Shown: positions 181 through 23,396 of the stretch, piece by piece
Layout: the number at the start of each line of letters is the position of its first letter
How positions within the stretch are numbered: the first letter of the stretch is position 1
Source of the DNA: an archaeon
GTDB taxonomy: Archaea; Iainarchaeota; Iainarchaeia; Iainarchaeales; 1-14-0-10-31-34
DNA: 32,000 bases
Assembly: GCA_024277355.1 (NCBI GenBank)
Contig: JAJRVL010000002.1
Coordinates: 1 to 32,000 of the forward strand
Direction: 5' to 3'
Program-made: the position numbers and the translations under genes
The notes under the pieces: generated by a model
What the model saw: only the letters and a program-made list of their open reading frames with translations
What the model was told of the DNA's origin: nothing
The model's database searches: none

Positions 181-269
181 TTTTTTTAAATTTAACGATT
201 GTTGCTTTTTTAATTTTTTTTTTTGCCTTTCTTTTTTTAAATTCTTCTCATCTTATTTTGAAAGGTTTT

Positions 270-1553
270 ATGAATTCTACTTTAGTTATTGGTTCTCAGT
301 TTGGGGATGAAGGAAAAGGAAAAATAGTTGACTATTTGGCTGAAAAAGCAGATTGTGTAGTAAGATATCAGGGTGGAAACAACGCAGGGCATACAGTGGT
401 TGTTAATGGGAAAATATTTAAACTGCATTTACTTCCATCTGGAACAATAAGAAAAAAAAATTCTTTTATTGGAGCAGGAGTTGCATTAGATCCAAGAGTA
501 TTAAAACAAGAAATTGCGTCATTAGAAAAAGAAGGAATTAAAGTTAATTTGCATATTGATCCAAGATGTCATATTGTTTTGCCTTATCATAATATTATTG
601 ATATAGGAAAAGAAGAAGCATTAAAAGAAAAAAATATTGGAACAACAAGAAGAGGGATGGGGCCGTGTTATTCAGACAGGGCTTCAAGAATTGGAATTAG
701 ATTTGATGATTTAGTTGCTGAAAAAAGATTTAAAGAAAAACTTGACTGGAATTTTCCTTATTATGTTGATTTATGCAAAAAAGTTTTAGGAAAAACTTTT
801 GATTTTACACAGGAAGAAGTATTTCAGGAATATGTGTCTTTAGGAAAAGAATTCAAAAAATATTTAACTGATGTTTCAATTGCTGTGAATAATTGTCTGG
901 ATAAAGGAAAAAATGTTTTGTTTGAAGGTGCGCAAGGAACTTTGCTGGATAATGATTTTGGAACTTATCCTTTTGTTACTTCGTCTCATCCAACTTCTGG
1001 TGCAGCAACAACAGGAGTAGGGGTGGCGCCTCAAAAATTAAAGACTGTGATTGGAATAGTTAAAGCATATACTACTAGAGTTGGTGCAGGGCCTTTTCCA
1101 ACTGAATTAAAAGGAGAAGAAGCAAACACTTTAAGAAATGCGGGAAATGAATTTGGCACTACTACTGGAAGGCCCCGAAGAGTTGGCTGGCTTGATTTGC
1201 CTTTGTTAAGATTATCAAACAGATTAAATGGTTTCACTGAATTAACTATAACTAAATTAGATGTTTTAAGCGGAATGAAAAAATTATTTATTGCCGATTC
1301 TTATACTCTTGAAGGAAACAAAGTTTTTGAATTTCCGTATGCAAATCATTTAGTTGAAAAAGTAACTCCAAATTATGTTGAGTTTGAAGGGTTTACTTTG
1401 GAAGAAAAAAACAAAGAAAATTTAAGAGAAAAAGGTTTTTCTGCACTGCCTTATACTGCAAAGAAATATTTGAGTTTTATTGAAAATAAAATTAATGTGC
1501 CAATTAAAATGGTTTCTTTTGGTGCGGAAAGAAATGACTTACTAAAAAAATAA
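270..1553 (+). CDS. purA: adenylosuccinate synthetase
   Basis: N-terminal P-loop GSQFGDEGKGKIVD, plus GGNNAGHT, TTRRGMGPCY and GTTTGRPRRVGWLD motifs typical of PurA. I prefer the ATG at 270 (MNSTLVIG) over the TTG at 258 used in the ORF track. Confidence 0.93.
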   Translation: MNSTLVIGSQFGDEGKGKIVDYLAEKADCVVRYQGGNNAGHTVVVNGKIFKLHLLPSGTIRKKNSFIGAGVALDPRVLKQEIASLEKEGIKVNLHIDPRCHIVLPYHNIIDIGKEEALKEKNIGTTRRGMGPCYSDRASRIGIRFDDLVAEKRFKEKLDWNFPYYVDLCKKVLGKTFDFTQEEVFQEYVSLGKEFKKYLTDVSIAVNNCLDKGKNVLFEGAQGTLLDNDFGTYPFVTSSHPTSGAATTGVGVAPQKLKTVIGIVKAYTTRVGAGPFPTELKGEEANTLRNAGNEFGTTTGRPRRVGWLDLPLLRLSNRLNGFTELTITKLDVLSGMKKLFIADSYTLEGNKVFEFPYANHLVEKVTPNYVEFEGFTLEEKNKENLREKGFSALPYTAKKYLSFIENKINVPIKMVSFGAERNDLLKK

Positions 1554-2894
1554 TTATATTTTTTTTGTTAATTCAGAAGCTTTTCCAGTATAATTTTCGG
1601 GTTTTAATTTCAGTAATTTGTTTTTTTCTTTTTGACTTAAAGAACTTTTTTTAATAAATGTTCTTAATTCATCTAAAGAAAGTTTTTTTCCTCTGGAAAA
1701 CTCTTTTAATTGTTCATAAGCAGTGCTGTTTCCTTCTTTTCTCATTACTGTTTGGATTGCTTCGCTTAAAATTTCAGGGTGTTTTCTTAAATCTTCAAGC
1801 ATTTTTTCTTTGTTTGCCTGAATTCTGTTTAAGCCGTTTAAACACATTTTTATTCCTAGAATTGAATGCCCAAAAGCAGTTCCATAATTTCTTTTAATTG
1901 TTGAATCAGTTAAATCTCTTTGCATTCGGCTTTTCTGTAATCTTGAACTCAAAAAGGAAAGCAAATTGTTTGCTAATAATAAATTTCCTTCGCTGTTTTC
2001 AAACTGAATTGGATTAATTTTATGCGGCATAATTGAAGATCCGGTTTCTCCTGAAACTTTTTTTTGGGAAACATATTCTTTACTTATATAAAACCATAAA
2101 TCTGCATTTAAGTCAATTAATATATTATTCAATAAATTCATTTCATTTAATATTCTTGAAATGTTTTCATGAGGAATAATTTGGGTTGTTAATTCTTTAT
2201 TTTCAAAACTAAAACTTTCAACAAATTCTTTGCTTAATTTAATCCAGTTTTTTTCAGGAAATGCTTCAGAAAAAGAATTAAAATTTCCTGTAGCTGAATT
2301 AAGTTTTCCAGGTAATTTTAATTTTTTTAAGTAACTTAAAGAATTATTAATTCTTGAAGCAAAAACAGCTGTTTCTTTTCCAAAAGTTGTAGGTGAAGCT
2401 GGCTGGCCGTGAGTATGACTTAGCATTGCGGTTTTTTTTTCTTTTAATGCAATTTCTTTTAGTTTTTTTAACAAAACAAAACAATTAGTTATGTATAAGT
2501 TTAATCCTTTTTTGATTTGAATTGAGTTTGATAAATTGTTTATGTCTTCTGAGGTTAACCCAAAATGCACAAAGCTTTCTAAATCTTTTAATGAATTTTT
2601 TTTAATTTGTTTTCTTATATAATATTCTATTGCTTTTACATCATGGTTTGTTGTTTTTTCTATTTTTTTTATTTCTGTTGCGTCTTTTTCATTGAAGTTT
2701 TTATATAAATTTTCAAGGATTTTTTTTTCTTTTTCAGTTAGTTTTCTTATTATTCCTTTTTTTGATAAAAATAACAAATATTTGGTTTCAACTTCTAAAC
2801 GAAATTTTTGCATGCCGTATTCAGAGAAAATTTCTTGTAATTCAGAAAAATATCTTTCATATCTTCCGTCTATTGGAGAAACAGCTTTAATCAT
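1554..2894 (-). CDS. purB: adenylosuccinate lyase
   Basis: 446 aa. Starts SPIDGRY, with HFGLTSEDINN, MLSHTHGQPASPTTFGKE and the fumarate-lyase signature GSSIMPHKINP. Its stop codon directly abuts the purA stop (TAA|TTA at 1551-1556). Confidence 0.92.
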   Translation of the reverse strand: MIKAVSPIDGRYERYFSELQEIFSEYGMQKFRLEVETKYLLFLSKKGIIRKLTEKEKKILENLYKNFNEKDATEIKKIEKTTNHDVKAIEYYIRKQIKKNSLKDLESFVHFGLTSEDINNLSNSIQIKKGLNLYITNCFVLLKKLKEIALKEKKTAMLSHTHGQPASPTTFGKETAVFASRINNSLSYLKKLKLPGKLNSATGNFNSFSEAFPEKNWIKLSKEFVESFSFENKELTTQIIPHENISRILNEMNLLNNILIDLNADLWFYISKEYVSQKKVSGETGSSIMPHKINPIQFENSEGNLLLANNLLSFLSSRLQKSRMQRDLTDSTIKRNYGTAFGHSILGIKMCLNGLNRIQANKEKMLEDLRKHPEILSEAIQTVMRKEGNSTAYEQLKEFSRGKKLSLDELRTFIKKSSLSQKEKNKLLKLKPENYTGKASELTKKI

Positions 2895-3011
2895 AAATAT
2901 TTATATGTTGAATTCTTTTTATTGGTTTTGTTTATTTTGGCTTTTGACTTTCCATTTGATTTAAATTCTTTAACTTATTTAATTATATTACTACTTTGAT
3001 GGTTTTTGTTT

Positions 3012-4436
3012 ATGTGTGGGATAATTGGAATTATTTCCAAAAAAGATGTTTTATCTGATATATTTGTAGGAATGCTTTCTTTACAGCACAGAGGACAGGA
3101 TTCAGCCGGAATACTTTCTTTTAATGAAAAAATGAATTTAATTAAAAAAGAAGGTTTAGTTGGTAATATTTTTTCAGAAAAAGAATTAAGTGAATTAAAA
3201 GCTAATGTTGCAATTGGTCATGCAAGGTATCCTACTATTGGCTCTGATTTTTTAGTTGATGCCCAGCCTTTTATGGTGTCAAAGCCGTATGAAATTGGAA
3301 TGGCGCATAATGGAAACATAACTAATTATTTTGATTTAAAAAAAGAACAAAATTCAGAAACAGATTGTGTTGTTTCTTCTTGTGATTTGGAAGTTGTATT
3401 AAATGTTTTTGCAGAAAATTTGGATGAAAATTTTTCTGTTAAGTCTTTATTTTTTGCAGTTAAAAAAGTTTTTGAAAAAGTTAAGGGCTCTTATTCTATT
3501 GTTGCAGTAATAAAAGGCAAAGGTTTATTGGCGTTTAGAGATCCCAATGCTTTGCGTCCTTTAATTATGGCTGAAAAAACTGTTAATGGAATTAAGTCTG
3601 TGGGTTTTGCTTCTGAAAGTCTTTCTTTAACTTCAACTGGTCATAAAATAATTAAAGATTTAAATGCAGGGGAAGCAGTTTTTGTTGATTCTGATTTAAA
3701 TGTTGTTTCTGAAGTTTTGGTTAAAGGTAATCCTACTCACTGTATGTTTGAATGGGTTTATTTTTCTGGGGCTGAATCAATTCTTGATGGATTAGAAGTT
3801 TATACTGCGAGAATTAATTTAGGAAAAGAATTAGCTAAAGAATGGAAAAAAACCGGCTTAAAGGCGGATGTTGTTATTCCGGTTCCTGATACAAGCAGAA
3901 CTGCAGCATCAAAATTGGCGGAAGAAATTAATCTTCCTTATCGCGAAGGATTAATTAAAAACAGATATATTGGAAGAACTTTTATTATGGCTTCTCAGGC
4001 AAGAAGAGAAAACGGAGTAAGATTAAAACTTAATCCTGTTGAAAGTGAAATTAAAGGAAAAGATATTTTACTGGTTGATGATAGTATTGTAAGAGGAACT
4101 ACTTCAAAAAAAATTGTTAAACTGCTGAAAGATAATGGTGCAAAAAAAGTTTTTTTCCTTTCAACCTGTCCTCCAATAATTTCTCCTTGTTTTTATGGAG
4201 TTGATATGCCTTCTAAAAAAGAATTAATTGCTTCGCAAATGTCAGTAGATGAAATAAGAAAACATATTGGAGCTGATTTTTTATTTTATAATTCAATTGA
4301 CGCATTAAAAAAAGCTTTAGAAAGGGAAGATTTATGTATGGCTTGTTTAACTGGGAATTATCCTGTTGCTATTCCTAAAAAAACAGAAACTGAATTTGAA
4401 AAAACAAGAAAAGAAGAACAGGAAAAACAGAGGTGA
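3012..4436 (+). CDS. purF: amidophosphoribosyltransferase (glutamine PRPP amidotransferase)
   Basis: MCGIIGI Ntn-hydrolase N-terminus (catalytic Cys after Met), LQHRGQDSAG, and the PRTase motif ILLVDDSIVRGTTS. The ATG at 3012 places Cys at position 2, so the upstream TTG at 3006 is unlikely. Confidence 0.93.
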   Translation: MCGIIGIISKKDVLSDIFVGMLSLQHRGQDSAGILSFNEKMNLIKKEGLVGNIFSEKELSELKANVAIGHARYPTIGSDFLVDAQPFMVSKPYEIGMAHNGNITNYFDLKKEQNSETDCVVSSCDLEVVLNVFAENLDENFSVKSLFFAVKKVFEKVKGSYSIVAVIKGKGLLAFRDPNALRPLIMAEKTVNGIKSVGFASESLSLTSTGHKIIKDLNAGEAVFVDSDLNVVSEVLVKGNPTHCMFEWVYFSGAESILDGLEVYTARINLGKELAKEWKKTGLKADVVIPVPDTSRTAASKLAEEINLPYREGLIKNRYIGRTFIMASQARRENGVRLKLNPVESEIKGKDILLVDDSIVRGTTSKKIVKLLKDNGAKKVFFLSTCPPIISPCFYGVDMPSKKELIASQMSVDEIRKHIGADFLFYNSIDALKKALEREDLCMACLTGNYPVAIPKKTETEFEKTRKEEQEKQR

Positions 4437-4440
4437 TTTA

Positions 4441-5406
4441 ATGGGTTCAGTTAAGGATTTAGAAATAATAAAAAAGCCTTCAGAAAAAGAATTTGGAACA
4501 GGAATTTTTTCTTTTACTGATGATTATAGTGTGTTTGATTTTGGAAAAATGCCTGAAACAATTCCTAATAAAGGAAATTCATTATGCAGGATGGCTTCTT
4601 ATAATTTTGAAAAAGTAAATGAATTAGGAATTAATTCGCATTTTGAAGAATTTATTTCTCCTAATAAAATGAAAGTTAAATTAGTTCAGGTAATTTATCC
4701 GGATAAACAAAAGTTAACTTCAAATGATTCAAATTATTTAATTCCTTTAGAAGTAATTTTTCGTAACATGCTTCCTGAAGGAAGTTCTTTGTTGTCAAGA
4801 TTTAGAGAAGGAAAAGCTGATTTTAAGGCCTATGGTTTTTCTGTAATGCCTAAAGCAAATGAATTGTTTGTTAAGCCTTTAGTTGAATTTTCAACTAAAT
4901 TAGAGCCAATTGACAGAATGTTATCTGAAACCGAAGCAGCTGAAATGTCTGCTTTAAACGAAACTGAATTAATTCAAATTAAAGATTTTGCTTTAAAAGT
5001 AAATGATTTTTTGAATGAAAAAGCTGTTTCACTTAATTTAGTTCATGCAGACGGAAAAATTGAATTAGCTTTTTCTCCTGAAAGAAAAATTATTTTAGTT
5101 GATGTTTTTGGTACTTTAGATGAAAACAGATTTTTGTTTAATGGATTAAATGTAAGCAAACAAATTGCAAGAGATTATTATATGAAAACCGACTGGCATA
5201 AAGAATTGTCTGAGGCAAAAAATTCAGGGAAAGAAAAAGATGAATGGCCTGTTCCACCTGAATTACCTTCAAAATTATTGGAATTAATTTCTGAAATTTA
5301 TTCTGCTACTGCTCAGGAATGGATTGGGGAAGATTTTGCTTCTGCAAGAAAATTAGAAGTAGTTTTAGCTGAATTTAAGGAATTAAAAGAAAAGAATAAT
5401 TGGTAG
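4441..5406 (+). CDS. purC: SAICAR synthase, long form (phosphoribosylaminoimidazole-succinocarboxamide synthase)
   Basis: GSVKDL...FTDDYSVFDFG...IPNKG...NSHF matches the PurC pattern (G-K/S-x-K-D, D-x-x-S-x-F-D, KG). The ATG at 4441 follows GAGGTGA, a strong Shine-Dalgarno (SD) sequence. The ORF-track extension back to 4366 overlaps the purF 3' end and is unlikely. The product is longer than the classical ~240-aa PurC. Confidence 0.75.
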   Translation: MGSVKDLEIIKKPSEKEFGTGIFSFTDDYSVFDFGKMPETIPNKGNSLCRMASYNFEKVNELGINSHFEEFISPNKMKVKLVQVIYPDKQKLTSNDSNYLIPLEVIFRNMLPEGSSLLSRFREGKADFKAYGFSVMPKANELFVKPLVEFSTKLEPIDRMLSETEAAEMSALNETELIQIKDFALKVNDFLNEKAVSLNLVHADGKIELAFSPERKIILVDVFGTLDENRFLFNGLNVSKQIARDYYMKTDWHKELSEAKNSGKEKDEWPVPPELPSKLLELISEIYSATAQEWIGEDFASARKLEVVLAEFKELKEKNNW

Positions 5407-5451
5407 AGGAAAGCATTAAATATTTTGAAATCAATTATTGTTTGTGGTTTT

Positions 5452-5832
5452 ATGAAAGTTGCAGTTGTAATGGGTTCCGAATCAGATAAAAAAATAGCAG
5501 AAAAAGCAGAACAGGTTTTAAAGGAAAATAAAATTCCTTTTGAAACTTTTGTTGCTTCAGCTCATAGAAACCCTGATAAAGTAAAAGAAATTGCATTAAA
5601 GGATTTTGATGTTTTTATTGCAATAGCAGGGCTAAGTGCTGCTTTACCTGGCGTAATTGCTTCTCATACAAAAAAACCTGTTATTGGCGTTCCTGTTTCA
5701 TCAAAGTTAGGTGGCTTAGATGCATTATTAGCTATCAGCCAGATGCCTAAAGGAGTTCCTGTTGCTTGTGTTGGAATAGATAATGGCCAGAATGCTGCTT
5801 ATTTAGCTATTCGAATTCTTAAATCAAAATAA
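5452..5832 (+). CDS. purE: PurE (N5-CAIR mutase / AIR carboxylase family)
   Basis: [45 protein letters not shown]. The class (I or II) cannot be assigned by eye. I prefer the start at MKVAVVMGS. Confidence 0.88.
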
Positions 5833-5925
5833 TTAAAATAACCTTTCTTCATTATTATTTATGTTGTACAAAAAATTGAATTCTGTTTTTTCTATTTTCT
5901 TATATATTTTTATTGAGGCTGTTAA

Positions 5926-7455
5926 ATGATTGCAGTAATTAATTTTGGAGGGCAGTATTGTCATTTAATTGCAAGAAAAATTCGCGAATTAGGTGTTAAA
6001 GCAGAAATTTTTTCTAATTTAATTTCAGCTGAAGAATTAAATGAATTAAATCCAGCAGGAATAATTTTGTCTGGCGGTCCTGCAAGTGTTAATGAATTAA
6101 ATGCACCTAAAATGGATGCAGAAATACTGAAATTAGGAATTCCTGTTTTGGGAATTTGTTACGGCTTGCAGTTAATCACAAAAGAGTTAGGGGGATTAGT
6201 TAAACCAGGAAAAACAAAAGAATATGGAAAAAATTTTATTGAAGTTAAAGGAAATGATCCTTTATTTGAAGGGTTATATAATGAACAGGTTTGGATTTCT
6301 CATTTTGATGCAGTAAAAAAACCACCTAAAAATTTTGTTGTTTCTTCTTCAACTTCTGGCTGTCCTGTTGCTTCAATGTTTTCAGAAGAAAAAAACATTT
6401 TTGGTTTACAGTTTCACCCCGAAGTCCACCATACTCCTAATGGTAAAAAAATTTTAGAAAATTTTCTAAAAATATGTAAAGCAAAAAAAGACTGGAAAAT
6501 TTCTTCTGTTTTAAATGAAATGCAGAAAGAAATTAAAGTAAAAGTTAAAGATAAAAAAGTTATTATGGGTGTTTCAGGAGGAGTTGATTCTTTGGTTGCT
6601 TCAGTTATAATTCATAAAACTATTCCTAATCAGTTGTTTTGTGTGTTTATTGATAATGGTTTAATGAGAAAAAATGAAAAAGAATATATTGAAAAGTTAT
6701 ATAAAAAAATGAAGTTTAAGCATTTTTTTTCAGTTAATGCTGAAAAAGAATTTCTTTCAGCGTTAAAAGGAGTTTTTGATCCTGAAGAAAAAAGAAAAAT
6801 TATTGGGCATACGTTTATCAAAGTTTTTGAGGATGTTGCATTTGATTTACAGAATGAATTTGGTAAAATTTCTTTTTTAGGTCAGGGAACAATTTATCCT
6901 GATAGAATTGAGTCAGCTGAACCGTCTGAAACCGCATCAAAAATTAAGTCTCATCATAATGTTACTTTGCCTGAAAAAATGCATTTTGATTTAGTTGAAC
7001 CGTTAAGGGAATTTTATAAAGATGAAGTAAGAAAAATAGGACAAAAACTTAAAATCCAAAAAGAGTTTTTGAACAGGCACCCTTTTCCTGGACCTGGTTT
7101 AAGTGTAAGAGTTTTAGGGGAAGTAACAAAAGAAAAACTTGAAATTTTAAGGGAAGTTGATTTTATTTTTATTGATGAATTAAAGAAAGAAAAATTTTAT
7201 TATAAAACCTGGCAGGCGTTGGCTGCATTGCTTCCAGTTAAAGCTGTTGGTGTTAAAGGAGATGAAAGAGATTATTCTTATATTGTTGCTTTAAGAGCTG
7301 TGAATTCAGTTGATGGAATGACTGCTGACTGGACTAGAATTCCAGATGACTTATTAGAAAAAATTTCTTCCAGAATTTTAAATGAAGTTAATGGAGTTGG
7401 AAGAGTCTTATATGACATTTCCCAAAAGCCTCCTGCGACAATAGAATTTGAATAA
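5926..7455 (+). CDS. guaA: GMP synthase (glutamine-hydrolysing), fused GATase + ATP-pyrophosphatase form
   Basis: 509 aa. The GATase half has GICYGLQL and LQFHPEV. The PP-loop is GVSGGVDS, and the C-terminal dimerisation region ends PPATIEFE. A GAGG SD lies upstream of the ATG. Confidence 0.93.
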   Translation: MIAVINFGGQYCHLIARKIRELGVKAEIFSNLISAEELNELNPAGIILSGGPASVNELNAPKMDAEILKLGIPVLGICYGLQLITKELGGLVKPGKTKEYGKNFIEVKGNDPLFEGLYNEQVWISHFDAVKKPPKNFVVSSSTSGCPVASMFSEEKNIFGLQFHPEVHHTPNGKKILENFLKICKAKKDWKISSVLNEMQKEIKVKVKDKKVIMGVSGGVDSLVASVIIHKTIPNQLFCVFIDNGLMRKNEKEYIEKLYKKMKFKHFFSVNAEKEFLSALKGVFDPEEKRKIIGHTFIKVFEDVAFDLQNEFGKISFLGQGTIYPDRIESAEPSETASKIKSHHNVTLPEKMHFDLVEPLREFYKDEVRKIGQKLKIQKEFLNRHPFPGPGLSVRVLGEVTKEKLEILREVDFIFIDELKKEKFYYKTWQALAALLPVKAVGVKGDERDYSYIVALRAVNSVDGMTADWTRIPDDLLEKISSRILNEVNGVGRVLYDISQKPPATIEFE

Positions 7456-9026: not shown

Positions 9027-9770
9027 TTAACTTTCGTCGTAGGCTTCTTCTATTCCGTGGACTTTCATTCCGTTTTTGGTTATTGTTACTGGATGTAAGT
9101 CTTCTGAGTGTTTTGTTGAACGCATTTTTCTTATGTGGACTGTTCTGTTTGTTCCGCCGCCGCCTATTCCTGAATAATGTAATACTATTACTCCATCTAC
9201 TACATATTCTTCTACATCATATCTTCCGAATTTGGCTGCACCTTCTTGTATTTCTGAAGTCATAATTGAAGTTACTCCAATTCTCATTAACATATAACTT
9301 AATTTTAGTATTGCTTTTCTTGTTTCATTTTCGTTTTCAAAATTAAAGCCTAATGCAGGAATTGAATCAATTACTGCTCTTTTTGCTCCAATTCTTTTTG
9401 TTACTCTCATTATTTCTAGTAATAATTTATCTAAATCAAAACCTGTCATTGGTAAAGAAAATTCTTCTTCTGACGGCATACCAATTCTTGCAACACTTCC
9501 GTCTATTATGCTGATTAATTTTTTTTCTTCTAATTTTTTTAAATCCCAGCCAAATCTTGTTACGTCTTCTCTTATTAATTCTGGTCTTTCATCTAAAGTT
9601 ACATATATTCCTGGTTCATTGTATTTTACGGCGCCATTGTAAATATACTGCATTGAAAAAATTGTTTTTCCGGTTCCACACGCTCCTGATACAAGCATTG
9701 TTCTTTTTTCAGGAAAGCCTCCTTCAATTAAATCATCTAATCCGCTTATTCCAGTTTTAACTCTTTTCAT
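9027..9770 (-). CDS. single-domain KaiC/RadA-like (RecA-superfamily) ATPase
   Basis: GISGLDDLIEGGFP, Walker A GACGTGKT, Walker B-like RAVIDSI, and a C-terminal IRKMRSTKHS region as in COG0467-type KaiC homologues. I prefer the ATG at 9770, preceded by AAGGTG plus a 6-nt spacer; the GTG at 9779 is part of that SD. Confidence 0.85.
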   Translation of the reverse strand: MKRVKTGISGLDDLIEGGFPEKRTMLVSGACGTGKTIFSMQYIYNGAVKYNEPGIYVTLDERPELIREDVTRFGWDLKKLEEKKLISIIDGSVARIGMPSEEEFSLPMTGFDLDKLLLEIMRVTKRIGAKRAVIDSIPALGFNFENENETRKAILKLSYMLMRIGVTSIMTSEIQEGAAKFGRYDVEEYVVDGVIVLHYSGIGGGGTNRTVHIRKMRSTKHSEDLHPVTITKNGMKVHGIEEAYDES

Positions 9771-9836
9771 TTTTAACACCTTTTTCTATAATTATTGTTT
9801 TTGAATTAATAAACTTTTGTTTTTGTGTTTTTTCAG

Positions 9837-11663
9837 TTAAATCCTGCTTACTTCTTTTATTCCTTCAATTTTATTTATTTTTTCAAGGATTTTTCCTATG
9901 GTTTGTGGTTTTTTTGTTTTAAGTGTTATAGTGCAGTTCACTGTTTTGTTTTCTACTTTTGCATTAGTTGAAATTATTTTTCCTTTTAATGAAGTAACTG
10001 CATCAAGTATTTCTGTAAGTAAGTTTACTTTTTCTTTTGCCTGAATTTTTATTTTTGTATTTAATTCTTTTTGGCCGATCATTTTCCAGTTTATTGGAAT
10101 TATTTTTTTTCTGTTTTCTCTTTTAAGGTTTACACAGTTTTCGTTATGAACGATTAATTTTCTTTTTGTGGTTTTTATTGCAAAAATTTTGTTTTCAGGA
10201 AGCGGATTACAGCATTTGGCTATTTTAATTGATTCAATTATTTTTTTTGATATTTCTGGTTTTATTATTTTTGGTTTTACTTCTTGGGATATTTTTAATA
10301 TTTGTTTTATTTTTGCTTTAGCTTTTTTTGTTTTTACCATCACTAACCATTGTCTTTTTGGAAACTGTTTTTTTGAAGTTATTATTTCAACTAAATCTCC
10401 GTTTTCCAGTTTATGGTCTAATTTTACTATTTTGCCGTTTACTTTTGCTTTTTCACATTTGTTTCCCATGTTTGAGTGAACTGCATAAGCAAAATCTAAT
10501 GGTGTTGAATCAGGAGTCAGTTCAATTATGTCGGCTTTTGGTGTTAAAGTAAATATTTTTTTTTCTTCAAATCTTAATTTTAATGTGTCAAGTATTTTTT
10601 TTGTTTTATTTTTTCTGTGCCATTCAATTAATTCTTTTGCCCATGTTAATTTAGAGTCAAATTCTTTGTCTTTTTTTACTTCTTTGTAGGCCCAGTGTGC
10701 AGGAAGGCCTTCTTCTGCTTCTGCGTTCATTTCAAAGGTTCTTATTTGTGTTTCAAATATTTTTTTATCTTTGGTTTTTAAGTCTGTGTGGATTGAACGG
10801 TAATTATTTTTTTTTGGGGTTGCAATATAATCATCAAATGAGTTAAGCAGTGGTTCATACATTGAATGGATTATGCCTAAAATTAAATAACATTCTTTTA
10901 TTGTATTGCAGAGTATTCTCACTGCAATTAAGTCATGTAATTCGTTTGCTTTGCAGTTTTTTTTCTTCATTTTACTGTATATTCCGAAAAAGTTTTTGGT
11001 TCTGCCGATTATTTTTGCATTTATTTTATCGTCTTTAAATCTTTTTTTTATTTCATTAATTATTTTTTTTAAGTCTGTTTCTCTTTCTTTTCTTTTCTTT
11101 TTTAATGCTCGTTTTAGTTTGTTGTATTCTTTTGGGTGTTCAATTTTAAATGCTCTGTCTTCTAACTCCCATTTTATTTCATTTAATCCAAGTTTTTGGC
11201 TGATTGGAAGATATACTTCTCTTATTTTTTTTGCAAGAATTTTATCTGGTTCTTTTACATTTCTTAATTCAGATAATTTTAATGAAAGTGCAATTATTAT
11301 TGTTCTGATGTCTTTTGTTGTAGCAAGAATTATTTTGCTTAATGTTTCTGAAGAAAAATTTTTGCTTTGGGATTCAATTTTTTTTATTTTTCTTAGCTCT
11401 TCAACAATATTTGTTATGTCTTCATTGAATTCTTTTGTTATTTCTTCTTTTTTTGTTTTGGTTTCGCATAAAAATGTTGCAGCTAAAGGGTTTCCTTTTA
11501 TTCCTAATGAATTCAGAATATAAGCGCTGTTTAATGAATTTTGAAATTGCTTTTGATCAATAATTTTATCTGAATATTCTATTGCTTTTTTTATTTGAGA
11601 GTAATAAGGTCCTTTTTTTATTGAGTTCTTGAATTTTTCAACTGAAATGTTTTCATATTCCAT
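9837..11663 (-). CDS. long RelA/SpoT homologue (RSH): degenerate HD domain - synthetase - TGS - Cys-rich (ZFD/CC) - ACT
   Basis: Synthetase motifs GRTKNFFGIYSKM, HDLIAVRIL, NYRSIHT, ETQIRTFEMNAEAEEGLPAHWAYKE. TGS domain IFTLTPKADIIELTPDSTPLDFAYAVHSNMG...GDLVEIIT. CC motif AKCCNPLPENKIFAI...VHNENCVN. ACT-like C-terminus. The hydrolase HD/ED residues are replaced (TFLCETKT where LLHDvvEDT is expected; LSLKLSELRN where ADRLHNMR is expected). Confidence 0.85.
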   Translation of the reverse strand: MEYENISVEKFKNSIKKGPYYSQIKKAIEYSDKIIDQKQFQNSLNSAYILNSLGIKGNPLAATFLCETKTKKEEITKEFNEDITNIVEELRKIKKIESQSKNFSSETLSKIILATTKDIRTIIIALSLKLSELRNVKEPDKILAKKIREVYLPISQKLGLNEIKWELEDRAFKIEHPKEYNKLKRALKKKRKERETDLKKIINEIKKRFKDDKINAKIIGRTKNFFGIYSKMKKKNCKANELHDLIAVRILCNTIKECYLILGIIHSMYEPLLNSFDDYIATPKKNNYRSIHTDLKTKDKKIFETQIRTFEMNAEAEEGLPAHWAYKEVKKDKEFDSKLTWAKELIEWHRKNKTKKILDTLKLRFEEKKIFTLTPKADIIELTPDSTPLDFAYAVHSNMGNKCEKAKVNGKIVKLDHKLENGDLVEIITSKKQFPKRQWLVMVKTKKAKAKIKQILKISQEVKPKIIKPEISKKIIESIKIAKCCNPLPENKIFAIKTTKRKLIVHNENCVNLKRENRKKIIPINWKMIGQKELNTKIKIQAKEKVNLLTEILDAVTSLKGKIISTNAKVENKTVNCTITLKTKKPQTIGKILEKINKIEGIKEVSRI

Positions 11664-11772
11664 ATAATATAATTTATTTAAGGAAAAGCTTTAATTCTGT
11701 TTTTTTAATGTTTTTTTTTGTATTGCATAATTTTATTTATTTATTTGTCTTTTATTTGATAAGGTGTTATTT

Positions 11773-12498
11773 TTGATTATTGCAGGAAACTGGAAAATGA
11801 ATAAAACAATTAAAGAAACAAAAGAATTTTTTGAAAAATTTAATAAACTTGTTTCTGAAACAAAAAACAAGATTTTAATTTTTCCTTCTTTTATTTGTCT
11901 TCAGACAGCAAAAGAAACTGCTTCAAAAAACATATTTATTGGTTCTCAAAATGTTTTTTTTGAAGAAAAAGGAGCTTTTACAGGGGAGATTTCTGTTTTA
12001 CAGATTAAAGATTTATGTGATTTTGTTTTGTTAGGCCATTCAGAAAGAAGACATAAATTTTCTGAATCAAATGAGTTAATTAATAAAAAAGTAATTAATG
12101 CAATTAAATCATTTAATGTTGTTTTATGTGTTGGAGAAACTGAAAGTGAAATGGAAAAAGGAAAAACTAATTTTGTTTTAGAAAACCAGTTAATTAAAGG
12201 ATTAAAAGAAGTTTCTTTTTCAGAAAAACTATTTATTGCTTATGAACCTGTCTGGGCTATTGGTACAGGAAAAACTGCAGGAAAAAAGGAAATTAATTCT
12301 GCTCATTCTTTTATACGAAAAAAATTAATTGAATTATTTGGAGAAAAAGCTGATTCAATTAATATTTTGTATGGGGGAAGCGTTAAACCTAATAATTTAA
12401 ATGAAATTTTTTCTGCTGAAAATGTAAATGGAGTTTTAGTTGGCGGAGCATCACTTAACCCTGAAATTTTTGCAGAAATAGTTAATTATAAAAAATAA
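11773..12498 (+). CDS. tpiA: triosephosphate isomerase, bacterial/eukaryal-type sequence
   Basis: IIAGNWKMN, LLGHSERR, CVGE, AYEPVWAIGTG, YGGSV. The likely start is the TTG at 11773, preceded by the SD AAGGTG. The GTG at 11764 used in the ORF track is probably part of that SD. Confidence 0.9.
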   Translation: MIIAGNWKMNKTIKETKEFFEKFNKLVSETKNKILIFPSFICLQTAKETASKNIFIGSQNVFFEEKGAFTGEISVLQIKDLCDFVLLGHSERRHKFSESNELINKKVINAIKSFNVVLCVGETESEMEKGKTNFVLENQLIKGLKEVSFSEKLFIAYEPVWAIGTGKTAGKKEINSAHSFIRKKLIELFGEKADSINILYGGSVKPNNLNEIFSAENVNGVLVGGASLNPEIFAEIVNYKK

Positions 12499-16702: not shown

Positions 16703-17569
16703 CTAACTAAACTGTTTTAGTTCCATTAATGAATTGGAATTTAAGTCTGTTTGAATGTAATTTAAGTCAATGTCTGCATAAAGCTTTAAGCTTGAATTAA
16801 AGTCAATTGCAGGCATAATTGATTTAAATGAAAGATTAATTTTATTTTGGTTGATTGTTTCATTTTCAATTAACATTGCATTATTTTTTCCTTTAAAAGT
16901 CCCAATATTAATTTTAATTTTGTCGTCTCCGTCAGCTGAAAAAATTATTTCTATTTTGTTTTTTAAAGTTGAATCCATTAATAATATTTCATGTTTTTCG
17001 TTTAATGCATTTCCATCAATATAATTAAAGTTTACAATTAAATCAGGGTTTAATGCATTTAATGGTCTTGAAACAGAAACCGAACTTCCTGAAACAGTTA
17101 AATTTAAATCCATTGAAGTCATGTTTGTGTCTCCTAAAGCATAAAAGAAAACTGAATTTTTGTTTGGAGTAAAATCATATTCGTAAACTAGTTTATTGCT
17201 GAATTTTAATGGAATATTTTGGTTTAATCTGTCAACATTAATTTTAATTGAAGAATTATTTATGGCAGAATAACTTGTTTCAGCAAACTCTTTCATTTTT
17301 ATGATTCTCTGCATTTTATTGAAATCTGAAGGAATTATTTCATTAAAAGTTATTTCAAGATTATTTCCTTTATTTACTTTAATGGAAGTTCCTAAAATTT
17401 TGTTTAAGTCAAAACTTAAATCATCTTTAATAAATTCCATTTTAGAATATTTTTTTATTTCTCCTGATGAATAATTTCTTGAATTAACATTTTCTAAATA
17501 AAACATTGAAAATAAAAGCATTGAAGAAAGTAAAAGAATTGCACTAAAGCTTATTACATACCCTTTCAT
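16703..17569 (-). CDS. pilin-like/pilus-associated protein with prepilin-type N-terminus (288 aa)
   Basis: MKG|YVISFSAILLLSSMLLFSMF followed by an Asn/Ser/Ile-rich beta-type domain. Its start overlaps the upstream stop (ATGA at 17566-17569). I recognise no family. Confidence 0.6.
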   Translation of the reverse strand: MKGYVISFSAILLLSSMLLFSMFYLENVNSRNYSSGEIKKYSKMEFIKDDLSFDLNKILGTSIKVNKGNNLEITFNEIIPSDFNKMQRIIKMKEFAETSYSAINNSSIKINVDRLNQNIPLKFSNKLVYEYDFTPNKNSVFFYALGDTNMTSMDLNLTVSGSSVSVSRPLNALNPDLIVNFNYIDGNALNEKHEILLMDSTLKNKIEIIFSADGDDKIKINIGTFKGKNNAMLIENETINQNKINLSFKSIMPAIDFNSSLKLYADIDLNYIQTDLNSNSLMELKQFS

Positions 17570-17982
17570 TTTTTCACCTTAAACCAGGCTTTTAATTCAG
17601 CCCAATAAAATTTTTCTCCATAAAAAAAACTTCTTTTAGTTGAAATTTCAGTTAAAGCATTTTTTTTGCATCCTTTTTTTGAAGTAGTATTTAATGCACT
17701 TGAATTATTATCATAATCATATATATTTAATTCAAAACACAAATTTTTTGTTGTTTTATTTAAGTATTTTGAGATTTCTTTGTTTTTGTTTTCTTTTACT
17801 GCTTCTTCAAATTTCCCGCTTTTTTCTAATACAGTTAAAACATCCTCTGAAATTAATGCTAATTTAGTTTCATTTAATGAACTGAATTTGCTTTCAGCAA
17901 AATTTCCGCTTATTGCTACAAGCAATGCAAAAGAAATAATTAATGCAATTACTGCATCAATTGAAATAATAAACCCTTTCAT
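17566..17982 (-). CDS. minor pilin-like protein with class III signal peptide (138 aa)
   Basis: MKG|FIISIDAVIALIISFALLVAISG. It shares an ATGA start/stop overlap with the gene on each side. Confidence 0.65.
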   Translation of the reverse strand: MKGFIISIDAVIALIISFALLVAISGNFAESKFSSLNETKLALISEDVLTVLEKSGKFEEAVKENKNKEISKYLNKTTKNLCFELNIYDYDNNSSALNTTSKKGCKKNALTEISTKRSFFYGEKFYWAELKAWFKVKK

Positions 17983-18482
17983 TTAAACACTCCGAAAATA
18001 AATTTTCTTTCTTTTTCATTTAACAAAACATATCTTTCAATTACAATTGTTTTGTTTTCAGCTGAAGGAAAAACTCCGAATTGTTTTAATGGTTGGTCGT
18101 TCATTGAAGTTACTTTAAAATAAAAATCGTATTTTTGTAAACCTAAAATTTCTTTTATTTCATTGTATTTAGCTGCATTTAAGTCAATTAATTTATTTAC
18201 TTTATTTTCATCTAAAATATTTCTTTCTTTTGCTAAGCCAATTGAATTAATGTTTAAGTCATTTAATGTTTCCCAGGAATTTGGCTGGCCTGAAGTCGAA
18301 ATTAAAATTTGAGATGCATTAACTGCTTTTTCCTGCATTTCAAAATAATATTCTTCTTCATTAAGTGAATTCTGAATTAAACCAAAAGATGAAAATGAAA
18401 TAACTAAAATAAAAATTAAAGCAGTAAAAGAAACAATAAAATCAGTGGTAAAAACCTGCCCTTTACAGTTCTTCAATTTCAA
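17979..18482 (-). CDS. minor pilin-like protein with class III signal peptide (167 aa)
   Basis: MKLKNCKG|QVFTTDFIVSFTALIFILVISFSSFGLI. Confidence 0.65.
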   Translation of the reverse strand: MKLKNCKGQVFTTDFIVSFTALIFILVISFSSFGLIQNSLNEEEYYFEMQEKAVNASQILISTSGQPNSWETLNDLNINSIGLAKERNILDENKVNKLIDLNAAKYNEIKEILGLQKYDFYFKVTSMNDQPLKQFGVFPSAENKTIVIERYVLLNEKERKFIFGVFK

Positions 18483-18506
18483 TCACTCCCTTTATGTTTT
18501 CTATTC

Positions 18507-18974
18507 TTATTTCATTTGCATTAACTTTTGAAATAAAAATAATTTTTTTGTTAAAAGTGAAGTTGAAATAAACTGGCCTTGTCTGAATTTTATTTTAACG
18601 GAATTTTCTTCAAATTCAATTTCAAAATCATAATTTTTTGTTATTATTGTTTTGCTTCCTTCTCCTGAAATATAAATGCCGTTAATGTTTCTTGCAATTT
18701 TTTCGCTTAAGGTTTTTGCTTTGATTTTTTCTGAATTAAAATCAATGTTTTTTTTTTGTTCAACTGAAACTGCAACAACTAAAGAAAACATTAAGAAGAG
18801 CAAAACAAGAGTTATTACAAATTCAGCTGAAATCTGCCCTCGCGGTTGCGTCCGCGAGTAACGCGTGCTATCTGCGATAGCACTGATTTTATTTCCGCTT
18901 TCGAGCGGGAGAACCGAGGCACGATTTCGCTGTTGCTCAATCCTGCTGTCATACTTTTTTGTTTTTTTTTTCAT
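18507..18974 (-). CDS. minor pilin-like protein with an atypically long, GC-rich leader (155 aa as drawn)
   Basis: The pilin-type motif PRG|QISAEFVITLVLLFLMFSLVVAVSV starts only at residue ~45. The only in-frame canonical start is the ATG at 18974. The leader codons are GC-rich and atypical for the window. Confidence 0.6.
   Translation of the reverse strand: MKKKTKKYDSRIEQQRNRASVLPLESGNKISAIADSTRYSRTQPRGQISAEFVITLVLLFLMFSLVVAVSVEQKKNIDFNSEKIKAKTLSEKIARNINGIYISGEGSKTIITKNYDFEIEFEENSVKIKFRQGQFISTSLLTKKLFLFQKLMQMK
18839..18908. other. three tandem GC-rich hairpins (candidate structured RNA / cis-regulatory element)
   Basis: CTCGCGG-ttgcgt-CCGCGAG (18839-18858), GTGCTATC-tgc-GATAGCAC (18865-18883), CCGCT-ttcg-AGCGG (18895-18908). 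All stems are perfect and sit in a local GC-rich island (about 18836-18950) within an AT-rich background. The existence of the hairpins is certain; their function is unknown. Confidence 0.5.
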
Positions 18975-18979
18975 TTATT

Positions 18980-21163
18980 TCACGGAGTCCTTTGAACAAT
19001 ATTAATATCATCAACATAAAAGTAATCTCTTCTGCCGCTCATTCCGGCATCAAATGCAATTCTAAAGTTGTTTGACAAAGGATATGCATTTAAGTCAAAT
19101 GAATAAAAATGATAAGTGTTGTCTGAGTCAGCTGAAGTAAAAATTTTTATTATAGTCCAGATAAACCCGTTAGAAGAAATGCTAACTCTTGTGGTGTCTC
19201 CTGATTCAAATGAATTAACTTTAGCCCAAAATTCCAGTCTTGGATTAGTATACGCACTTAAATCAACTGCTCTTTCAGCATATCCTGTGCTTCTTCTTAA
19301 TCTTAAATGATTTGGAGAACTATAAGGGGTTCCTCCGCTTCTGATTGAACTGTCTCCTGAATGAGTCCATGCATTTAGCCATCCTGTTCCTGAACTCCAG
19401 CTTGTATCAGGGAAAGTGTGGAATGCAATTATTATTGGGCCAGTTGAATTAATTATTATGGTTCTGTTTTCATCACTGCTTCCTGTATTTGGAACTGAGT
19501 AATCATCAGTGCAGTTTACATCCCAATAATAAGTTCCGTTTGAAGCAAAAGTTTTAGTAAAACTTTGAGTAATTCCTTCAGTTATTGAATTGTCTGTTTG
19601 GTCTATTATTCCATTAATAATCAATTCACAAAAATTAATTCCTGAATCAACATCATTTACCGTATAGTCAAACTGAACACTAAAACTGTTTGAAGTATAA
19701 CCTGTTGCAGGGCTTTCAAGCATTATTGTTGGCGGAGTGCTGTCTATTGTATAATAAGTTGAAGTAGTATAAGTGCTTCCGTCGCTAAATTCAAATGTAA
19801 TTCTAAAGTATTCTCCGTCATTATTAACTATTTCATCAAATCTTAATTCATTTCCTCCGCTAAAAGAAGTTGACGCATTAATTGTAAAATCTGTTACATT
19901 AATCCATTCTCCTGCATTTGCTGTTCCGTTCCAATAATCAGTTCCATCAAATCTTACTCTTTCTATAATAGCTGAATCCTGATCTGTTTCATTCCAGTCC
20001 CATACAATAATTCTTGAAATTGTAAGGCTTGTATTAATACTGGTGTTTTCTATTGTCCAGTTTCTTAATCTGTCTCCACCTCCATTAAATGACGCAGTAC
20101 TCCATGAGAAATTAAAGTTGTCTGACATATTGCTGACAGTAACATTTAATGAAATAAAATCTGAATTAATTCCATCTGAAGCAGTAACAGTTCCTGTGTC
20201 ACTGTTTGAACCCAAGGGAACATCAATAGTAACTGTAATTTGCTGGCAAGTATTTCCTGTTAAAGAATTAATTGTTGGAATTGCCTGAACCCAATCTCCT
20301 GCGTCTCCATTAGATGAAGTAAAAACAATATTAGTTAATGCAGTTGAAGTTGTATTGCATACTTGAAAGTTATTTGAATCTGAATAACCTGAATCAATTG
20401 AAGGACTCCATAAATCAGGAAAAATCATTAAAGGCTGGTTGCTTTCTCCGACAATTACTTCTAAAGTTAAAGGAACAATTATTTGTTTTGCTCCGTCAAT
20501 TGTATTTACATCAAAAATTAATTCGCCTGAATAATTTCCTACAGCAAATAAATTAGAAGTAAAATTTAAATCAATTCCAGTGTTTGAGTCAGCAGGAACA
20601 ACAAAAGAATTACTGCTTAATTGCAAAGTAACATTAGCTGAAGTCCAGACATAACTAACTGAAACACTTGCGTTTCCGCTTGTATTATTTATTACTTTAA
20701 TATTTTCTATTGCACTTGTATTCTGTGCTATAGTTGAATAAATACTTCCTTTGTCTGTTTCAATTTGAATATCTCCAATTAAAACATAACCTTCATAAGA
20801 AGTAATCCAAATCCAATGGCCCCCTGATTCAGTTGGAATGCTTCCTGTTACTTCAACTTGTGATTCAGAAATTACATCTGTTCCATTAATGTTTAGTCTT
20901 ATTGTTTTGTCTGAAATTGAACTTTTGTTTTCATCTATTCCTGATGGAATTGAAATAAAAATTTGTTTTTTTGTTCCAGGGCCAGAAACGAAAACTTCGT
21001 TAGCTGTACTTGCAAGTTTATTAACTGTATTTTGTGCTTCAGAATTTGCTTTAGCATAATTAATTGAAGTTATTTCATTGTTTGATACAGAAATAATTAA
21101 TCCAAGTACTACCATTGAAACTGCAAGAATAATTAATAATTCAACTGACGCCTGCCCTTTCAT
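18980..21163 (-). CDS. large pilin-like surface protein / candidate tip adhesin (727 aa) with class III signal peptide
   Basis: MKG|QASVELLIILAVSMVVLGLII, then a Ser/Thr/Asn/Gly-rich beta-type sequence. It includes an Ig-like segment (DSTPPTIMLESPATGYTSNSFSVQFDYTVNDVDSGINFCEL) and a C-terminal jelly-roll-like segment (LEFWAKVNSFESGDTTRVSISSNG...DYFYVDDINIV). I counted about two dozen N-x-S/T sequons by hand. Confidence 0.75.
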   Translation of the reverse strand: MKGQASVELLIILAVSMVVLGLIISVSNNEITSINYAKANSEAQNTVNKLASTANEVFVSGPGTKKQIFISIPSGIDENKSSISDKTIRLNINGTDVISESQVEVTGSIPTESGGHWIWITSYEGYVLIGDIQIETDKGSIYSTIAQNTSAIENIKVINNTSGNASVSVSYVWTSANVTLQLSSNSFVVPADSNTGIDLNFTSNLFAVGNYSGELIFDVNTIDGAKQIIVPLTLEVIVGESNQPLMIFPDLWSPSIDSGYSDSNNFQVCNTTSTALTNIVFTSSNGDAGDWVQAIPTINSLTGNTCQQITVTIDVPLGSNSDTGTVTASDGINSDFISLNVTVSNMSDNFNFSWSTASFNGGGDRLRNWTIENTSINTSLTISRIIVWDWNETDQDSAIIERVRFDGTDYWNGTANAGEWINVTDFTINASTSFSGGNELRFDEIVNNDGEYFRITFEFSDGSTYTTSTYYTIDSTPPTIMLESPATGYTSNSFSVQFDYTVNDVDSGINFCELIINGIIDQTDNSITEGITQSFTKTFASNGTYYWDVNCTDDYSVPNTGSSDENRTIIINSTGPIIIAFHTFPDTSWSSGTGWLNAWTHSGDSSIRSGGTPYSSPNHLRLRRSTGYAERAVDLSAYTNPRLEFWAKVNSFESGDTTRVSISSNGFIWTIIKIFTSADSDNTYHFYSFDLNAYPLSNNFRIAFDAGMSGRRDYFYVDDINIVQRTP

Positions 21164-22994: not shown

Positions 22995-23120
22995 TTTTTC
23001 CCTCCTTTTTTGTTTAAATTAAAAACAATTTATTATATGGATTTCTCATTTCTCATTTAAATTCTTTTGCTTTTAGAATTTTCTTGTTTTTTCAGTAAAA
23101 AAAGAGTAAAATTAGAATAA

Positions 23121-23396
23121 TGCAGGCGTGTTTTGAAGTCGAATTAAAACCGAAAATTAAATTAGCCCTTGAATGCTCTAGCTTCCGTTGCTCCCAAAAG
23201 CATTAAACAATAAAATTTCCGCTGCACCCTTCCAGGCCTGACGGGTTGACTTTAAGGCTTAATCTTAGGGGACAGAAGTTCATTGAAACAACCAAGGATT
23301 TAATTTCCTGAATTAAATCCTTCCCCAAAACTTCGGCTCCTGCTAAAGCAGATTTCAGGTAACAGAGAACTGCTAACTCTCCAGCCTAGCCTGCAG
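23121..23396 (-). ncRNA. signal recognition particle RNA (archaeal 7S-type SRP RNA)
   Basis: The minus strand contains the helix-8 core GUCAGGCCUGGAAGGGUGCAGCGG (compare the conserved SRP motif AGGxCxGGAAGGxAGCA). The Alu-domain 5' part GGCUAGGCUGGAGAG...CUGUUACCUGAAAUCUGC...GGAGCCGAAG resembles archaeal SRP RNAs as I recall them. There is a perfect 12-bp hairpin AAGGAUUUAAUU/AAUUAAAUCCUU (helix-6-like) and terminal pairing UGCAGGC/GCCUGCA. The region is GC-rich relative to its flanks. The ends are approximate, within about 5 nt. Confidence 0.85.

Follow-up and report, generated by a model that had tools for sequence, protein, structure and literature searches.

The window analysed here is a stretch of 32,000 nucleotides from a DPANN archaeon of the order Iainarchaeales (assembly GCA_024277355.1, contig JAJRVL010000002.1, positions 1 to 32,000 of the forward strand). 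Its minus strand carries, at 9837–11663, an open reading frame (ORF) for a long RSH, a multidomain homologue of RelA and SpoT, in which the hydrolase site is destroyed and all synthetase catalytic residues are present. A second long RSH in the same genome shows the reciprocal state, with an intact hydrolase site and a synthetase-like domain that has lost catalytic residues. We refer to the product of the window ORF (P0001) as A and to its paralogue (P0121) as B, and we consider it probable that A is the synthetase-only half, and B the hydrolase half, of a two-gene alarmone system.

Architecture and active-site states of A

The gene and the domains of its product are as follows:

9837..11663, minus strand: A-type long RSH gene, 608 aa, P0001, [hS] (ORF, Pfam/NCBIfam, structure alignments, AlphaFold2, Foldseek)
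11169..11558, minus strand: pseudo-hydrolase HD_4 domain, residues 36–165 (HP, HD..ED and DxxHN lost; two small deletions)
10659..11018, minus strand: synthetase RelA_SpoT domain, residues 216–335 (GRxK, D244..R249, SFDD-YIAxPKxxxYxSxH, ExQIRT)
10368..10556, minus strand: TGS domain, residues 370–432, with H396 (PF02824, 71 bits)
10230..10367, minus strand: shortened helical (AH) segment and flexible linker, residues 433–478 (HMMER match gap, spacing)
10080..10229, minus strand: zinc-finger/ribosome-intersubunit (ZFD/RIS) domain, residues 479–528 (RelA C-terminal alignment, PF28438)
9840..10079, minus strand: ACT/RRM domain, residues 529–608 (PF13291, 39.7 bits; modelled beta-alpha-beta-beta-alpha-beta fold)

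The frame is unbroken over its 608 residues. Pfam assigned HD_4 (PF13328) to residues 36–160, weakly, at 65 bits (cut-off 27.2), RelA_SpoT (PF04607) to residues 220–329 at 124.5 bits, TGS to residues 372–429 and ACT_4 to residues 532–607, and the precomputed annotation adds RelA_RIS (PF28438). A has the HD-type (pseudo)hydrolase domain, all-helical in the model, and the synthetase domain of a long RSH, followed by a C-terminal region in which TGS, RIS and ACT are present and the AH domain is down to about 45 residues. A preliminary description of this DNA had listed all five long-RSH modules in the bacterial order. The order of the domains is indeed bacterial, but the AH domain is about 90 residues shorter than in bacterial Rel and RelA, with the AKVNG and CC motifs 73 residues apart, compared to a bacterial median of 166. 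This shortening is the sole departure from the full bacterial architecture.

Residue states were read from alignments to M. smegmatis Rel, B. subtilis Rel and E. coli RelA, to 240 homologues, and to the paralogue P0121. In the hydrolase domain, QN takes the place of HP and a deletion of 6 residues precedes it, CE takes that of HDxxED, with 4 residues deleted, and SLKLSE that of ADRLHN. With all three motifs replaced, the Mn-binding and catalytic hydrolase residues are absent, and the structure-based and 240-homologue alignments both bear out the earlier reading of a dead hydrolase. The synthetase motifs, which had been described as intact, retain 11 catalytic residues (R221, K223, K231, D244, R249, D278, K284, Y288, H292, E304 and Q306), all of them invariant in a 75-sequence alignment. 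Within the genus, the A-type domains are 78% (SYN), 75% (ZFD), 72% (TGS) and 61% (pseudo-HD, the lowest) identical.

The motif ahead of DYIA reads SFDD, as had been noted previously: both Asp residues are kept, and the Glu of ExDD is replaced by Ser. The preliminary description took this motif as the monofunctional state. However, ExDD was found in 19 of 52 short (600–690 aa) forms with both sites intact, two checked representatives of which are archaeal, so that xFDD is no marker of monofunctionality in this clade.

Against the NCBIfam spoT_relA model (TIGR00691), the window ORF scored 466.5 bits and B 433.1 bits, both under the cut-off of 499.2, which is probably why public labels read “TGS domain-containing” or “HD domain-containing protein”. 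The RelA equivalog model (NF008124) gave A 335.5 bits, compared to 324.7 bits for the SpoT model. A has the combination of dead hydrolase and intact synthetase site seen in the RelA subfamily, and its NF008124 score is well under the cut-off of 728 bits; it is not an orthologue of beta/gamma-proteobacterial RelA.

In bacterial RelA and Rel, the TGS, zinc-finger/RIS and ACT/RRM domains are the modules by which starved ribosomes are sensed, and the AH domain runs along the A/R-tRNA. The TGS domain of A includes H396, which aligns with H432 of E. coli RelA in an alignment to 5IQR (position counted by hand). The H432-equivalent His stacks on the tRNA's 3′ CCA end, and its replacement abolishes activation by deacylated tRNA (PMC7797070). 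This His is present in all 52 A-type and single-copy proteins and in 20 of 20 bacterial sequences, and in only two of 30 B-types. The zinc ligands C484, C485, H506 and C510 are likewise invariant in the 75-sequence alignment; the zinc-finger signature is TTKRK in the archaeal clade, compared to TRGRG in bacteria.

An AlphaFold2 model of A, built on the 75-sequence alignment, had a mean predicted local distance difference test score (pLDDT) of 84.7 and a predicted template modelling score (pTM) of 0.77. Its top structural matches by Foldseek were ribosome-bound RelA (5IQR, the best match), B. subtilis Rel (6YXA) and full-length SpoT (7QPR). A resembles E. coli RelA (5IQR, 5KPV) in its domain order, pseudo-hydrolase, intact synthetase, acidic xxDD instead of RxKD, H432-equivalent His, zinc-finger/RIS and ACT domains. 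It is no orthologue of that protein: it groups with archaeal sequences, apart from the sampled bacteria, and reaches 335 bits where the cut-off of the RelA equivalog model is 728; it also differs in the shorter AH domain, in the Ser for Glu in the acidic motif, in the TTKRK signature, and in its archaeal host and ribosome.

The B-type paralogue and the pattern across the order

The preliminary description saw no hydrolase partner in the window and held that the turnover of the product would need explaining. A profile search of the whole genome with RelA_SpoT and HD_4 returned only the window ORF and one other gene, which encodes a hydrolase-intact long RSH on contig C7:

G000:C7:17053-18864 (locus L002 658-2472): B-type long RSH, P0121, 604 aa, [Hs], between argS-like and alaS-like genes

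The genome therefore encodes an [hS] and [Hs] pair, which answers the question of alarmone turnover. The B gene lies about 13 kb from the rRNA operon on C7. A small Mesh1-like hydrolase, which had been proposed as a partner to look for, was not found in the genome: HD_4 occurs only in the two long RSHs, and neither Pfam over the whole genome nor custom HMMs over all ORFs detected a small alarmone hydrolase or synthetase beyond them. A 205-aa basic ORF at G000:C2:255245-255886 (+) was considered as a degenerate small alarmone synthetase (SAS), a reading that is unsupported (E = 0.024 with the custom HMM, no Pfam RelA_SpoT match). No Ppx/GppA was found in this genome.

P0121 is 30% identical to P0001. 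Pfam assigned it HD_4 (120 bits) together with PF01966, a weak RelA_SpoT match (67 bits), TGS and ACT, and no RIS. Its hydrolase motifs are canonical (RFSGEPFFIHP, FLHDVVEDT and LADKYHN), and the equivalents of R44, H53, H77, D78, E81, D82, D144 and N148 are all kept, comprising the Mn-binding residues and the catalytic ED, R and N of HD/Mesh1/SpoT-type hydrolases. In the synthetase-like domain, GRxK is replaced by KYKR and ExQIRT by KIYIRT, AHWxYK is lost, and the Arg of DxxxxR (R269) is a hydrophobic I or L in B. P0121 also has neither the zinc finger nor the tRNA-sensing His. It scored 317 bits with the SpoT model and 216 bits with the RelA model, the reverse of the preference shown by A. 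The modelled N-terminal half superimposed on S. aureus Rel with a TM score of 0.90, and P0121 also matched Mesh1 structures.

Full-length A. baumannii SpoT (7QPR) was among the top structural matches of B, and the two share an active-looking HD domain, an inactivated but conserved synthetase-like domain, TGS and ACT. We take A. baumannii SpoT to be synthetase-inactive and plant RSH1 to be another hydrolase-only long RSH. Unlike these, the archaeal B-types have lost the zinc-finger/RIS domain and, in 28 of 30 cases, the TGS His, and they fall on the archaeal side of the tree, outside the sampled bacteria.

Matches to P0001 were found in 120 of the 151 genomes of the same GTDB order, and matches to P0121 in 116. 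There were at least two P0001 matches in 68 genomes, one in 52 and none in 31. At the level of the phylum, 105 of 132 genomes at least 85% complete contain a RelA_SpoT domain. A motif table compiled for the order covered 80 loci in 53 genomes, and no exception was found. All A-type and single-copy proteins in it are synthetase-intact, keep the zinc finger and are hydrolase-dead wherever the hydrolase region is present; two A-type frames are truncated. All B-types are hydrolase-intact, have lost the synthetase Glu and Gln, and have no zinc finger. The sensing parts are thus kept in the copy predicted to make the alarmone and shed by the copy predicted to degrade it, and this is our main basis for proposing tRNA/ribosome control of A.

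One A-type gene of a family-level relative (G074:C36) has an in-frame TGA at position 1233 of its locus (L014), at the conserved Gly of GRxKxxYG. The near-identical database protein P0046 has Gly at this site; the TGA may be a point mutation or a sequencing error, or it may be recoded. Other RelA_SpoT proteins of different lengths were also seen in some families of the order (e.g., G002:C1:524677-525012, G025:C4:148478-148795, G152 and G169), including proteins of about 460 aa in family f2, proteins of about 360–400 aa that match only model positions 1–99, and a 206-aa SAS-like ORF in G025.

Among the database homologues shorter than 690 aa, 54 were hydrolase-dead and synthetase-intact, 17 were hydrolase-intact and synthetase-dead, and the 52 with both sites intact included 49 with a zinc finger. 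A further 117 homologues with both sites intact were bacterial and about 700–800 aa long. The contig of one representative of the short both-sites-intact class carries aIF2-gamma, S6e and aIF5B, that of a second carries a family B polymerase, FEN1, CDC48 and deoxyhypusine synthase, and one cluster is labelled Nanoarchaeota. The median spacing between TGS and zinc finger is 74 residues in A-types, 86 in the short both-sites-intact class and 166 in bacteria. The helical deletion of about 90 residues is thus common to A and the archaeal forms with both sites intact.

Maximum-likelihood trees were calculated under a site-heterogeneous model from 128 rows (quick search) and 48 rows (careful search). 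The bacterial sequences in them were best database hits only, mostly with Clostridia-like labels, and no donor lineage was identified from this sample. The 128-row tree recovered a clade of A-type and single-copy proteins (support 99) and a B clade (100), with the sampled bacteria on one side of a branch supported at 98. The corresponding values in the 48-row tree were 100/97 for A, 100/100 for B and 100/99 for the branch to the bacteria. A and B lie on the archaeal side of this branch, as do archaeal forms of 600–690 aa in which both sites are kept. A handful of short both-sites-intact forms group with the bacteria. Within the A clade and within the B clade, the sequences cluster largely by the same genome families. 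In an approximately unbiased (AU) test on the 48 rows, a sister relationship of A and B was not rejected (delta lnL 0.86, p = 0.30).

The closest solved sequences to both paralogues were the bifunctional Rel proteins of B. subtilis (6YXA) and S. equisimilis (RelSeq, 1VJ7), with E = 1e-98 for each paralogue. These have both sites active in one chain, RxKD and a full AH domain, whereas here the two activities would be divided between two genes; the bifunctional architecture is likely the ancestral state. The simplest reading, to which we are led by inference, is that a bifunctional Rel was acquired once, long ago, that its helical region was trimmed, and that duplication and reciprocal loss followed before the order diversified. 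The division of labour between A and B appears to be independent of that between RelA and SpoT and to have arisen on the archaeal side of the sampled tree. The preliminary description had proposed horizontal acquisition. The protein is indeed of bacterial RSH type, but an isolated or recent import is at odds with its wide distribution (120 of 151 genomes in the order, 105 of 132 in the phylum), with the archaea-specific clade and with the conserved gene order described below; any transfer must have been ancient.

Proposed mechanism and its alternatives

In the two-gene system that we propose, A would transfer pyrophosphate from ATP to GTP or GDP, giving (p)ppGpp. By analogy with E. coli RelA, its HD domain may be a structural or regulatory pseudo-hydrolase remnant, and the shortened, partly flexible helical linker would stand in for the bacterial AH domain. 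Deacylated tRNA on the archaeal ribosome most likely activates A, since the TGS domain with the CCA-stacking His, the zinc-finger/RIS domain and the ACT/RRM domain are all retained. B, with a complete Mn-dependent HD site, is predicted to act as a dedicated (p)ppGpp hydrolase off the ribosome; its zinc finger is gone altogether, as are the synthetase Glu and Gln, the ATP-binding Arg and Lys and the tRNA-sensing His. A true DPANN stringent response, in which A docks on the archaeal ribosome via a remodelled helical/zinc-finger module, senses the CCA end of uncharged A-site tRNA and makes (p)ppGpp, and B, having evolved separately, resets the system, is a tentative proposal about which we remain doubtful.

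Several observations weigh against this scheme. The AH domain is about 90 residues shorter, the zinc-finger signature is TTKRK, and archaeal ribosomes differ from bacterial ones, so that ribosome docking of A is putative. The pseudo-synthetase domain of B is conserved within the genus like its HD domain (76% and 73% identity, respectively), suggesting that it has some role beyond that of a relic. The tree leaves A, B and two archaeal both-sites-intact clades without a firm mutual order, its bacterial sampling is confined to best database hits, and in the 48-row AU test a grouping of B with the bacteria was not rejected either (p = 0.31). Finally, A occurs alone in many near-complete relatives, and in five of these (G016, G015, G039, G055 and G010; loci L088–L092), one of which is closed and 99% complete, the sole HD_4 domain is the pseudo-hydrolase of A. 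Unless such cells have hydrolases of another kind, this is hard to square with potent (p)ppGpp synthesis by A, and it is the main argument for the alternatives that A is tightly controlled off the ribosome, has very low activity or makes something else.

These A-only archaea apparently carry a competent alarmone synthetase and no RSH-type hydrolase, contrary to the rule for bacteria, discussed by Atkinson et al. (PMC3153485), by which a cell requires a dedicated hydrolase alongside its (p)ppGpp synthetase. Genomes with a single copy occur at scattered positions in the A clade of the 128-row tree, which implies repeated loss of B if B was ancestral to the order.

Among the alternatives, the one that survives best is that A is a real (p)ppGpp synthetase that works off the ribosome and is controlled in solution by an ACT ligand, by C-terminal autoinhibition or by a protein partner, with the helical trimming reflecting a lost docking geometry. 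The short AH domain fits such an enzyme, as does the 16-residue stretch of low confidence in the A model (residues 462–477, pLDDT < 50). PF19296 was undetected in the precomputed domains of the short archaeal forms, among those listed, and the best full-length superposition of the compact A model was on the off-ribosome SpoT structure 7QPR (TM 0.56). That archaeal ribosomes are unlike bacterial ribosomes is general knowledge and points the same way. However, every A-type sequence examined across the order retains the CCA-stacking His, all four zinc ligands and the ACT domain, and B, for which ribosome sensing would be dispensable, has lost exactly the His and the zinc finger, a contrast expected from selection for tRNA/ribosome sensing in A. 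Off-ribosome control of A thus appears unlikely to us, and we prefer its activation by deacylated tRNA.

It is considerably harder to argue that A makes something else, for instance (p)ppApp or nothing but pGpp, or that it adds pyrophosphate to tRNA in the manner of some toxic small RSHs, and so stands outside a ppGpp circuit. Such an activity could explain how many lineages tolerate A in near-complete genomes that contain no HD_4 hydrolase, and it would also accord with the lack of a detectable Ppx/GppA in the window's genome. However, DYIAxPKxNxYxSxHT and ExQIRT are canonical guanosine-type motifs with key residues invariant with bacterial Rel, the co-resident B has a canonical ppGpp-hydrolase site that also matches Mesh1, and the fold of A matches Rel and RelA far better than CapRel. 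We regard a different product as very unlikely, and (p)ppGpp synthesis by A remains the preferred reading.

Genomic setting, earlier reports and implications

The assembly comprises 1.13 Mb in 11 contigs and is 96% complete with 0.67% contamination. An archaeal signal recognition particle (SRP) RNA at 23120-23396 (-) of the window (RF01857, 133.7 bits) serves as a domain marker for the contig. The window also contains an archaeal-type pilin (with the signal QGTTEYLI), two T2SSF proteins and a FlaI-like ATPase, as well as two KaiC-like ATPases and an A-type ATP synthase operon. An archaeal 16S-tRNA-23S operon lies on contig C7, the contig that carries the paralogue. The tetranucleotide correlation with contig C2 is at least 0.94 for all contigs, and at least 0.99 for all except the 2.7-kb C5; the RSH gene alone gave 0.97, and the GC content is uniform across the genome. 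The archaeal context given in the preliminary description, for which a check of the binning had been suggested, is thus well supported.

The two closest named relatives are metagenome-assembled genomes labelled Ca. Micrarchaeota archaeon and Ca. Diapherotrites archaeon CG10. The order FlaI-T2SSF-T2SSF-pilin-TpiA-RSH-KaiC...GuaA is kept in both. Compared to these two relatives, the RSH is 63–64% identical and the adjacent KaiC-like protein 93–96%. The latter is a single-domain KaiC-like ATPase encoded at 9027-9779 (-), directly downstream of the RSH gene, and is an unusually constrained neighbour.

Contamination, a chimeric contig and recent transfer were considered and are excluded by the composition, the SRP RNA and the conserved gene order. 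More broadly, that A is a recent bacterial import, lies on a mis-binned contig or is a decaying, functionless relic is exceedingly improbable: the sequence is of bacterial type, as are those of the neighbours tpiA, class II lysS and fused guaA, but the same 32 kb holds the archaeal SRP RNA, a pilin/pilus operon and the A-type ATPase, its composition is that of the rest of the genome, the gene order is conserved, the frame is unbroken, and none of the catalytic residues varies in a clade that spans the order.

On the other side of the RSH gene, tpiA at 11764-12498 (+) is divergently oriented and, as the preliminary description had it, of bacterial type, or more broadly of the bacterial/eukaryotic type: it scored 166 bits with TIGR00419, above the cut-off, compared to 38 bits with the archaeal model PRK04302. 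The divergent arrangement is kept in the relatives' loci L005 and L006. Between the two genes lies one further feature:

11664..11763, no strand assigned: AT-rich 100-bp intergenic region between the RSH gene and tpiA (sequence read directly)

Both divergent promoters presumably lie within this region. A sigma-70 scan of 11664..11763 gave no more sites than expected by chance, with a bacterial model that is unsuited to archaea.

A purine cluster at 258-7455 (purA, purB, purF-like, purC, purE and guaA) ends about 2.4 kb from the RSH gene. A link between RSH and purine synthesis, with the purine enzymes as possible targets, was considered and is unsupported, since RSH presence does not track purA across the phylum: in family f10, RSH is found in 22 of 23 genomes and purA in none of the 23, and families f8 and f24 are alike in this respect. 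Downstream of the pilus ATPase, five successive ORFs of 138–727 aa at 16703-21163 (-) have no Pfam match and are probably pilus-associated proteins of an uncharacterised type.

(p)ppGpp signalling is regarded as a bacterial and plastid trait, and we know of no detection of (p)ppGpp in the archaea examined. The preliminary description went further and held that archaea lack long RSHs. This was true of the survey by Atkinson et al. in 2011, which found no long RSH in archaea (PMC3153485), but it has been outdated by Li et al. (2021, mSystems, PMC8407392). That paper records RelA/SpoT genes in 69% of Diapherotrites, 42% of Woesearchaeota, 21% of Pacearchaeota and 19% of Nanoarchaeota, and predicts that the DPANN genes were acquired from Bacteria. 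Close homologues of A are accordingly common and, at the level of the family, in part already described. Their study concerns the same gene family in the same superphylum as ours; it differs in that the passages retrieved by term search give a count of presence and absence and mention neither active-site states and paralogue types nor the trimmed architecture and synthetase-only genomes. Our literature search found no description of the active-site states, the reciprocal split, the trimmed architecture or synthetase-only genomes in archaea. The presence of the family in DPANN was thus already known; the reciprocal split and the synthetase-only, near-complete relatives are new as far as the literature was searched.

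These observations show that an archaeal phylum-level lineage keeps long RSHs under selection, and that many of its members split synthesis and hydrolysis between paralogues, with the tRNA- and ribosome-sensing elements only in the synthetase copy. The gene pair can be cloned, which makes the existence of archaeal (p)ppGpp, and of a stringent response in archaea, directly testable. It also opens the questions of whether a bacterial-type stringent factor can read an archaeal ribosome and how a RelA/SpoT-like split arose independently, and the synthetase-only relatives challenge the rule that a synthetase needs a hydrolase, as known from bacteria. If the ribosome-coupled reading is true, the pair would form a complete alarmone circuit coupled to the ribosome, the first of its kind in Archaea, derived by splitting a bifunctional enzyme reciprocally, in parallel with RelA/SpoT, and the sister lineages without B would reveal a novel, non-RSH route of (p)ppGpp removal.

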